The notes: generated by a model not told the origin, from the letters alone. A stretch of 62,419 nt of DNA from an uncultured Heliobacteriaceae bacterium (GCA_964493645.1 CAZBPH010000001.1:7974-70392), one strand, 5' to 3'; counted from the stretch's first letter, positions 57,572-58,786 are shown. Made by a program: numbers and translations.

Positions 57572-58786
57572 ATGCACAAAGATGAAGTCATCTCGAACCA
57601 GCTGAAGATTCTCGCCAATCAGGATCAGATCAAGCAGAATCAGAACAAGCTGGATCTGCTGCTGGCCAGTCAGGAAACCATTCTGGCCAATCAGGAACAG
57701 ATCCGTGAGCTTGAAGCCAAACTCAGCCAGTTGCTGGCGGAAGAAGAGCGCCTGACTGACGAGTATGATCCTTTTGGCGAAATGATCGGCACAAGTGATG
57801 AGTTTCAGCGAGTGCTGCGCGAGGCTTTGAATGTCGCCGCGACCGATACGACCGTCCTGCTGCGTGGCGAAACCGGAACCGGTAAAGAGCTGCTGGCTCA
57901 TGCGATTCACTCGCACAGCCCGCGTAAACACCGGCCTTTCATCATCGTCAACTGCGCCGCCTTGCCGTCCGGCCTGATCGAGAGCGAACTGTTCGGCTAT
58001 GAAAAGGGCGCCTTCACCGGGGCCTCACAGCGTAAAGCCGGGCGATTCGAACTTGCCGATGGCGGGACGATCTTCCTTGACGAGATCGGAGAGGTCCCGA
58101 TCGAGACCCAGGGCCGTTTTTTGCGCGTCATCCAGACAGGCATTTTCGAGAGACTGGGAAGCACCAAAAGCGTCCGCGTCAAGGTTCGTATCATCGCCGC
58201 AACCAACCAGCCGCTCGAACGGCTCGTCAGCCAAAGGAAATTTCGCGCCGATCTGTACTACCGTCTGAACATCTTTCCCATTACTCTGCCGCCACTGCGC
58301 GAGCGAACCGCCGACATTCCTCTGCTGGTTCGCTACTTCGTCAAAAAATACAGCGTCCGTTTCAACCGCGTGATCAACTCGATCCACGAGCAATCATTGC
58401 TGGCGCTGCAGGATTATCACTGGCCCGGTAATATCCGCGAGCTGGAAAATATGATCGAACGTTCGATTTTGACTGCCGAGTCCGATCTCCTCAAGATAAA
58501 ATTGCCAGACACAAATCTCGAACCCGCGATTTCAATCAATGACGGCCTGAACGATATAATACCTGCATCGTTAATCAACCCTTCCGCGCCGGATCACCCG
58601 TTCAAATCGATCACCCTGGCTGAAAACGAACGCGCCCTCATCCAGCGAACCCTTCATCACACAGGCGGTCGTATCTCGGGGCCGAATGGCGCCGCTGAAA
58701 TTCTGGGTCTTCCAGTGTCGACTCTGCGCAGCCGTATTAAAAAACTGGGCCTCAACAGCACCCCTCATCAACTCAATAATCGATAG
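57572..58786 (+). CDS. Sigma54-dependent transcriptional activator (bEBP) with a short coiled-coil N-terminus in place of a sensor domain
   Basis: 404-aa ORF with Walker A GETGTGKE, the sigma54-contact loop GAFTGA, Walker [10 protein letters not shown] and a C-terminal Fis-type HTH ([25 protein letters not shown]). Residues 8-45 are heptads of the form x-N-Q-x-x-I/L-x. Confidence 0.9.

Follow-up and report, generated by a model that had tools for sequence, protein, structure and literature searches.

The sigma-54 activator encoded near the end of the window (the whole 62,419-nucleotide stretch of DNA analysed, from an uncultured Heliobacteriaceae bacterium) carries at its N-terminus an array of Asn-cored heptads that is also the body of a small protein encoded downstream of it. 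The match between this array and the mini-protein is real and beyond chance, and the evidence set out below firmly supports the description of the array as a fused, selected and helical copy of the mini-protein. The features on which the analysis rests are collected in Table 1.

Table 1. Features of the window and of related loci. Locations without a locus name are positions in the window.
Feature	Location	Strand	Basis or remarks
Sigma-54 enhancer-binding protein (activator), 404 aa	57572..58786	+	ORF; N-terminal helix, AAA+ with GAFTGA, lid, Fis-type HTH
Predicted activator input module, residues 1-62	57572..57757	+	Heptad table, AF2, omega, collinearity with mini-proteins
Predicted activator flexible linker, residues 64-75 (helix to AAA+ core)	57761..57796	+	AF2
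Putative enhancer (UAS)	58806..58836	.	Palindromes GCGATATATCGC (58806-58817, perfect) and GCCATATATCGC (58825-58836), 19 bp apart
Sigma-54 type promoter, TGGCAT-N5-TTGCT	58939..58954	+	Read from sequence; 174 nt upstream of the mini-protein ATG
Free mini-protein, 85 aa, first gene behind the sigma-54 type promoter	59113..59370	+	ORF
TonB-dependent-receptor-like outer membrane protein, second operon gene	59420..62419	+	Pfam CarboxypepD_reg, OMP_b-brl_4
Fused activators of ~885 aa	L047 2864-5509; L026 6571-9222; L048 3218-5902; L049 102-2777		Trp_halogenase-like domain and 35-aa linker
Asn-synthase-like PP-loop, radical-SAM-like and Trp-halogenase-like flavoprotein genes	L029 1189-5300; L044 6754-10678 (Asn-synthase-like and flavoprotein genes); L050 3057-7147; L051 12938-17012		

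The activator and its N-terminal array

The activator has the features that define a bacterial enhancer-binding protein, namely an AAA+ domain with GAFTGA and Walker A and B motifs, and a C-terminal HTH. In Pfam, Sigma54_activat (PF00158) is matched by residues 71-237 (E 3.7e-70), AAA_lid_14 by residues 243-310 and HTH_8 by residues 349-392; the boundary at residue 71 agrees with the preliminary description of this DNA, which had the AAA+ domain begin at about residue 70. The GAFTGA motif (146-151), the Walker A motif GETGTGKE and the DEIG motif are invariant across 17 activator orthologues, and sigma-54 itself (rpoN) is encoded on contig C67 of the same genome. Pfam detects no domain before residue 71, whether receiver, V4R, GAF, PAS or other sensory domain, and searches of Pfam, NCBIfam and PDB sequences assign the array to no family. 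Since the AAA+ domain is preceded by nothing else, the array is, to judge from the domain content, the sole input module of the activator.

Both proteins can be written as heptads with Ile, Leu or Val at a, Asn at d, Ala at c and Gln at e. In the activator, the a positions V6, I13, I20 and L27 alternate with Asn at d (N9, N16 and N23); a stammer (L27, L30, S33) follows, and then I37 and N40, the d layers thus comprising four Asn residues (N9, N16, N23, N40) with S33 after the stammer. In the mini-protein, Asn occupies nine of the eleven core d layers. The KLDxLL stammer is common to both proteins, as is the core spacing of 3-3-4 (a, +3 to d, +3 to d), and the K-L of KLD is nearly invariant across the family. 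The preliminary description had already pointed to Asn at residues 9, 16 and 23 counted from the Met of each protein and to an identical three-residue insertion after KLD, and both observations are borne out by the heptad table (the former also by the ORFs). Its count of 19 identities in 31 positions between activator residues 15-45 and mini-protein residues 43-73 is reproduced on recomputation.

The common register that it proposed is confirmed, with Ile at a and Asn at d. A BLASTP comparison of the activator N-terminus with the mini-protein gives 27 identities in 54 ungapped positions (E 9e-13), and a profile built from 15 mini-proteins (positions 1-61) matches the activator N-terminus at E 3.5e-15 and has no other match in a six-frame search of the 5.56-Mb assembly. 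The similarity is collinear from the Met of each protein to about residue 57, which indicates at the sequence level that the N-terminus is a whole mini-protein-like unit, beyond a common repeat. The tail of the array (I44, L47, L51, L54, E57, L61) is a degenerate second KLxxLLA unit. Residues 46-61 had been described as a conventional acidic/leucine helix placed after the array. In the alignment, however, this segment falls opposite the second NQxKLDxLLA unit that longer mini-proteins possess, and one orthologue still has KLDLLLAN there; it is therefore a degenerate continuation of the same array.

At the DNA level, the segments encoding activator residues 15-45 and mini-protein residues 43-73 are identical at 65 of 93 positions (70%), and the longest word common to the array and the mini-protein gene is 16 nt, from which it follows that the duplication is old. 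No pair-specific similarity or covariation between an array and its cognate mini-protein was detected in nine pairs, an array being no closer to its own mini-protein than to foreign ones. Recent duplication or gene conversion was rejected on the same DNA figures and on this lack of cognate-specific similarity.

Conservation of the array

The array segment is 62 aa long in all nine orthologues compared, with a conserved ATG and a mean identity of 68%; the mini-proteins, by contrast, range from 64 to 98 aa with a mean identity of 54%. Omega is 0.05-0.31 for codons 1-66 of the activator and 0.05-0.085 for the AAA+ core, and the two parts are thus under comparable purifying selection. Within residues 1-55, 21 columns are invariant in 17 activators, including N9, Q10, I13, L14, A15, N16, Q17, I20, K21, Q24, K26, L27, D28, L29, L31, Q34, I37, L38 and Q41. 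A word-index search seeded with residues 1-70 returned 28 proteins, every one a sigma-54 activator (27 of ~400 aa and one 269-aa partial record), and the named activators among them are labelled Acidobacteria, Acidobacteriota or Blastocatellia.

Two other readings of the array are jointly held to be very improbable. The first, raised as a caveat in the preliminary description, is that translation begins near M71 and the array is no part of the protein. M71 is indeed invariant, but it belongs to a conserved EMIGxS motif, and the conserved ATG, the fixed length and the purifying selection on residues 1-66 therefore make a downstream start very unlikely; it was rejected on the conservation and omega of these residues. 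The other is that the helix mimics sigma-54 region I as a pseudo-substrate of the GAFTGA loops. Region I is generally rich in Gln and Leu, which would favour such mimicry, but region I of the organism's own sigma-54 lacks NQ heptads, and the idea was rejected for want of sequence support.

The mini-protein family

Searches of Pfam, NCBIfam and PDB sequences found no relative of the mini-protein, and in particular Pfam found no PspA_IM30 domain in it. A profile search covering 1.84 billion representatives identified a family of 640 representatives at E<=1e-3, most of them 60-200 aa long and ending in ...ANQxKILAK or ...EILSLL. One match is a more distant activator that carries the array. Distant members head other operons, with genes for MacB- and ABC-type transporters, an amidohydrolase or FG-GAP/ASPIC proteins, and no clear -24/-12 element was found upstream of them; sigma-54 dependence was thus not found to be universal in the wider family. 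The Asn/Gln-rich ORF was also considered as a leader peptide involved in attenuation, and this reading was discarded, since conservation acts on features of the protein, namely the hydrophobic residues at a, the stammer at KLD and the ILSLL at the C-terminus; the occurrence of the array within the activator and the confident AF2 helix likewise speak against it.

Several members of the family depart from the common form. P0007 and P0106 have a hydrophobic segment ahead of the NQ array and may be membrane-anchored or exported; only a few members have such an N-terminus, and many other matches look like overlong ORF calls. A Blastocatellia MAG (L036 6001-6225) encodes a 74-aa chimera of near-identical activator residues 1-33 and the C-terminal half of a mini-protein, with a truncated receptor gene behind it, which could reflect either a deletion between arrays or an assembly collapse. 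Two tandem mini-protein genes follow the activator in L059 (2190-2792) and L024 (6377-6911).

Predicted structure

In AF2 monomer models, the mini-protein is a single helix from residue 3 to residue 84 (pLDDT 97.8), and the activator N-terminus is a single helix from residue 3 to residue 63 (pLDDT ~77-87), after which residues 64-75 are modelled without secondary structure (pLDDT <50 at 64-67). We infer that isolated helices of such length (9-12 nm) must bundle and would be stable only as coiled coils. With Ile or Leu at a and Asn at d, the helix has a polar core of a type known above all from parallel trimers. A structural parallel is found in the N@d stalks of trimeric autotransporter adhesins, which also consist of heptad runs with hydrophobic a and Asn d, and in which the Asn layers of solved trimeric coiled coils form ordered polar networks around an anion (PMC13580157). 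Hydrophobic a and Asn d recur over consecutive repeats in both of the present proteins. However, the adhesin motif is [I/V]xxNTxx, with Thr or Ser at e, and it occurs in secreted fibres, whereas the proteins described here are cytoplasmic, read IxANQxx and have Gln at e throughout. Because the residue after Asn is Gln and not Thr, a trimeric state for the array or the mini-protein can be proposed by analogy only.

The leucine stripe in the second half of the activator helix (L47, L51, L54, L61), from which a flexible loop leads to the AAA+ domain, resembles the B-linker of DmpR and XylR and the linker helix of NtrC1 and DctD, a position that is a known control point of ATPase assembly (PMC7264223). 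In those proteins, however, the linker relays the signal of a genuine sensory or receiver domain, and here nothing lies upstream of the helix.

Promoter, enhancer and operon

The sigma-54 type promoter scores 10 of 12, a value equalled in 0.6% of random 300-nt windows, and the mini-protein gene is the first ORF behind such a promoter both in the window and in related loci. The palindrome GCGATATATCGC has its only perfect copy in the 5.56-Mb assembly at this site, and together with GCCATATATCGC it forms the only paired copies; a weak third copy lies at 58786-58797. Two or three palindromes with 19-20 bp spacing are found upstream of mini-protein genes in eight of nine array-type loci and in three sister-clade genomes, and GG-N10-GC elements with aaTTGC recur ahead of the mini-protein genes of related loci. 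Between the last palindrome and the -24 element lie 93, 113-115 or 134-135 bp (measured in the window, 58786-58954, and in L021, L024, L026, L028, L029, L030 and L032), and these steps of ~21 bp suggest helical phasing of enhancer and promoter.

The gene order is similarly constant. In all 12 loci in which an array-bearing activator is followed by downstream sequence (from eight genomes and four metagenome contigs), at least one mini-protein gene comes next, with two such genes in two loci, and most of these loci have a -24/-12 element and two or three palindromes ahead of the mini-protein gene. The promoter, the unique and conserved palindromes, the presence of a sigma-54 gene and this gene order firmly support, from sequence and synteny, the assignment of the mini-protein gene as the probable conserved first target of the activator.

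The receptor gene is also next in most of the array-activator loci. In the window it is cut at 62419, where the end of the window coincides with the end of contig C1; an orthologue follows the mini-protein gene in six related loci (66-93% identity; 50% in L022 over a fragment cut by a contig end). The remainder of this genome's operon lies on another contig, and the 5.9-kb contig C289 carries the flavoprotein homologue. In genome G002, the receptor gene is followed (L050 7345-16250) by two genes for proteins of the FG-GAP/ASPIC type and by an ABC importer of the NMT1 type, and pieces of this set follow mini-protein genes in other genomes (L023, L025, L031, L033).

A sister clade with a flavoprotein domain in place of the array

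In five genomes, the closest activators are proteins of ~885 aa in which a Trp_halogenase-like FAD domain stands in place of the array (64-70% identity in the four compared). These fused flavoprotein-AAA+-HTH proteins form one well-supported clade nested within the array clade, and the array is thus ancestral and was replaced once. To our knowledge, a Trp_halogenase-like domain has not been described as the sensor of a sigma-54 activator. The mini-protein is kept in four of the five genomes, in three of them behind palindromes of the same type, and it must therefore have a role for which the activator need not carry an array.

A stand-alone form of the flavoprotein is present in five of eight array-type genomes. 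It was not found in the near-complete array-type genomes G018 and G021 even at E 1e-15, which contradicts an obligatory partnership. In G036 (L029), the stop of the flavoprotein gene abuts the start of the array-activator gene, and an Asn-synthase-like gene and a radical-SAM-like gene precede the flavoprotein gene. In L044, which belongs to a distant family, the flavoprotein gene lies 14 nt upstream of the mini-protein gene and has an Asn-synthase-like gene in front of it, and in the genus of the window (L050 and L051) the full enzyme trio is found 12-15 kb downstream. Among 61 relatives, mini-protein and flavoprotein occur together in nine, one without the other in six and three, and neither in 43 (9/15 versus 3/46; Fisher p 4.5e-5, uncorrected for phylogeny). 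The flavoprotein weakly resembles QhpG, LodB and GoxB, which are protein- or peptide-modifying flavoenzymes, and its sequence contains no NQ heptads able to pair with the array. The trio as a whole resembles a peptide- or protein-modification set, of which the mini-protein could be a substrate.

Possible roles of the shared array

The reading preferred here, tentatively and with somewhat less than even confidence, is product feedback on the activator through mixed coiled coils of array and mini-protein. The activator would bind the GCGATATATCGC palindromes and fire the sigma-54 promoter, the first product of which would be the free mini-protein, followed by the outer-membrane receptor. Self-association of the N-terminal helix would set the assembly of the AAA+ domains into an active ring on the enhancer; free mini-protein would co-assemble with the activator helices into mixed coiled coils, and the output of the operon would in this way feed back on its own activator. 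The coiled-coil state, the formation of heteromers and the sign of the feedback are what we infer; the feedback would more likely be negative than positive, with the valency of the AAA+ domains capped or diluted as in SinI-SinR and the plant microProteins, and would in function resemble PspA-PspF. In favour of such feedback are the homology and common register, the single-helix models, the constraint on the array, the gene order and the regulatory elements. Against it are the replacement of the array in the sister clade while the mini-protein was kept, the lack of pair-specific similarity between arrays and mini-proteins, and the distant mini-proteins that have no obvious sigma-54 promoter.

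Part of the same evidence would suit a simpler arrangement, unlikely in our estimate but to be taken seriously, in which a constitutive coiled coil or B-linker-like stalk was once recruited from a mini-protein gene and no cross-talk remains. The activator would then be controlled elsewhere, for example through its own expression, and the mini-protein would have an unrelated role, for example as a substrate or scaffold of the enzyme trio or in concert with the transport genes. The old and diverged array DNA (with its 70% identity and 16-nt longest common word), the lack of any closer similarity between cognate partners than between foreign ones, the retention of the mini-protein without an array in sister-clade genomes, and a wider family that heads diverse operons, some of them without a sigma-54 promoter, all point this way. 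The strict adjacency of activator and mini-protein genes in 12 of 12 loci does not, and neither does the strong selection on the polar Asn core, as a mere stalk could drift to a hydrophobic zipper, as the last two heptads did. A somewhat lower probability is given to a shared third partner, in which array and mini-protein both bind another protein, as ligands or as substrate-like handles, the Trp-halogenase-like flavoprotein being the best candidate. It would be a trans sensor docked on the array, for which the mini-protein competes, and the sister clade would have made the contact covalent by fusion to the AAA+ domain. The nested clade of fused proteins in five genomes, the abutting genes in G036 and the 14-nt interval in L044, the co-occurrence with the mini-protein (again uncorrected for phylogeny) and the weak likeness to modifying flavoenzymes speak for it; G018 and G021, however, lack the flavoprotein, its gene is 12-15 kb away or on another contig in the genus of the window, and it has no NQ heptads.

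Two further proposals are improbable. It is conceivable, though at long odds, that the NQ-heptad helices are recognition handles for the protein-modifying trio, with the mini-protein as substrate or ligand and transcription of the operon reporting enzyme occupancy; the activator would carry a substrate-like handle, an arrangement that one lineage would have hard-wired by the flavoprotein-AAA+ fusion. If true, sigma-54 activators would have a new mode of sensing, and the modified coiled-coil proteins would form a new class. Slightly less credible still is a release of a lock by positive feedback, in which the helices would keep the activator inactive and out of the ring until the mini-protein separates them, so that the system behaves as a bistable switch. 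This is one form of the lock, released or reinforced by exchange with the free paralogue, that the preliminary description put forward; such a lock is plausible, but as the sole account it is weakened by the sister clade, which replaced the array and kept mini-protein and enhancer sites, and by the lack of pair-specific similarity. Lock release can draw on the same structural evidence as product feedback through mixed coiled coils, and in activators of the NtrC1 and DmpR type the AAA+ domain is usually repressed by a sensory N-terminal domain or a coiled-coil linker (PMC7264223). However, the inducer would be made only after induction, and no external signal input is apparent.

Relation to known systems and implications

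Control of a sigma-54 activator is usually exerted by an N-terminal domain that binds a ligand or accepts a phosphoryl group, or else by a partner protein to which the activator is not related. The present activator shares with PspF-PspA and HrpS-HrpV the lack of a ligand-binding sensor domain, those activators being controlled in trans, and with PspF-PspA also a coiled-coil protein, here a candidate regulator, whose gene comes first in the sigma-54-dependent target operon, so that product feedback would result (PMC7057263, PMC6003685). PspA, however, binds the AAA+ domain of PspF (at the W56 loop) and has no homology to PspF anywhere, whereas the candidate partner described here is paralogous to the N-terminal helix of the activator itself and has no Pfam or NCBIfam match that would place it in the PspA/IM30 family.

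The homology between the small protein and the oligomerisation module of the factor, here established by the BLASTP and profile matches, is instead shared with SinI-SinR and with the plant microProteins (PMC3163267, PMC9638782, PMC4807768). As with microProteins, mixed oligomers with the factor are proposed here by analogy (PMC4807768), and in the LITTLE ZIPPER (ZPR)/HD-ZIPIII pair the factor also activates the gene of the small protein (PMC9638782, PMC4807768). Those factors differ from the present one in that they are repressors or eukaryotic activators and not AAA+ ring ATPases, and they pair through helical hooks or hydrophobic-core leucine zippers, not through Asn-cored heptads.

What sets this activator apart is that its only apparent input is a predicted polar-core coiled coil paralogous to the first product of its target operon. 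Studies of Asn-cored coiled coils, which have marginal stability and depend on concentration, have so far dealt with secreted adhesins. If array and mini-protein do pair, the feedback logic of microProteins, known from SinI-SinR and plant factors, would have a bacterial counterpart built on an AAA+ protein, and Asn-cored coiled coils would have a regulatory use in the cytoplasm; the natural swap of the array for a flavoprotein sensor in the nested clade offers a ready comparison.
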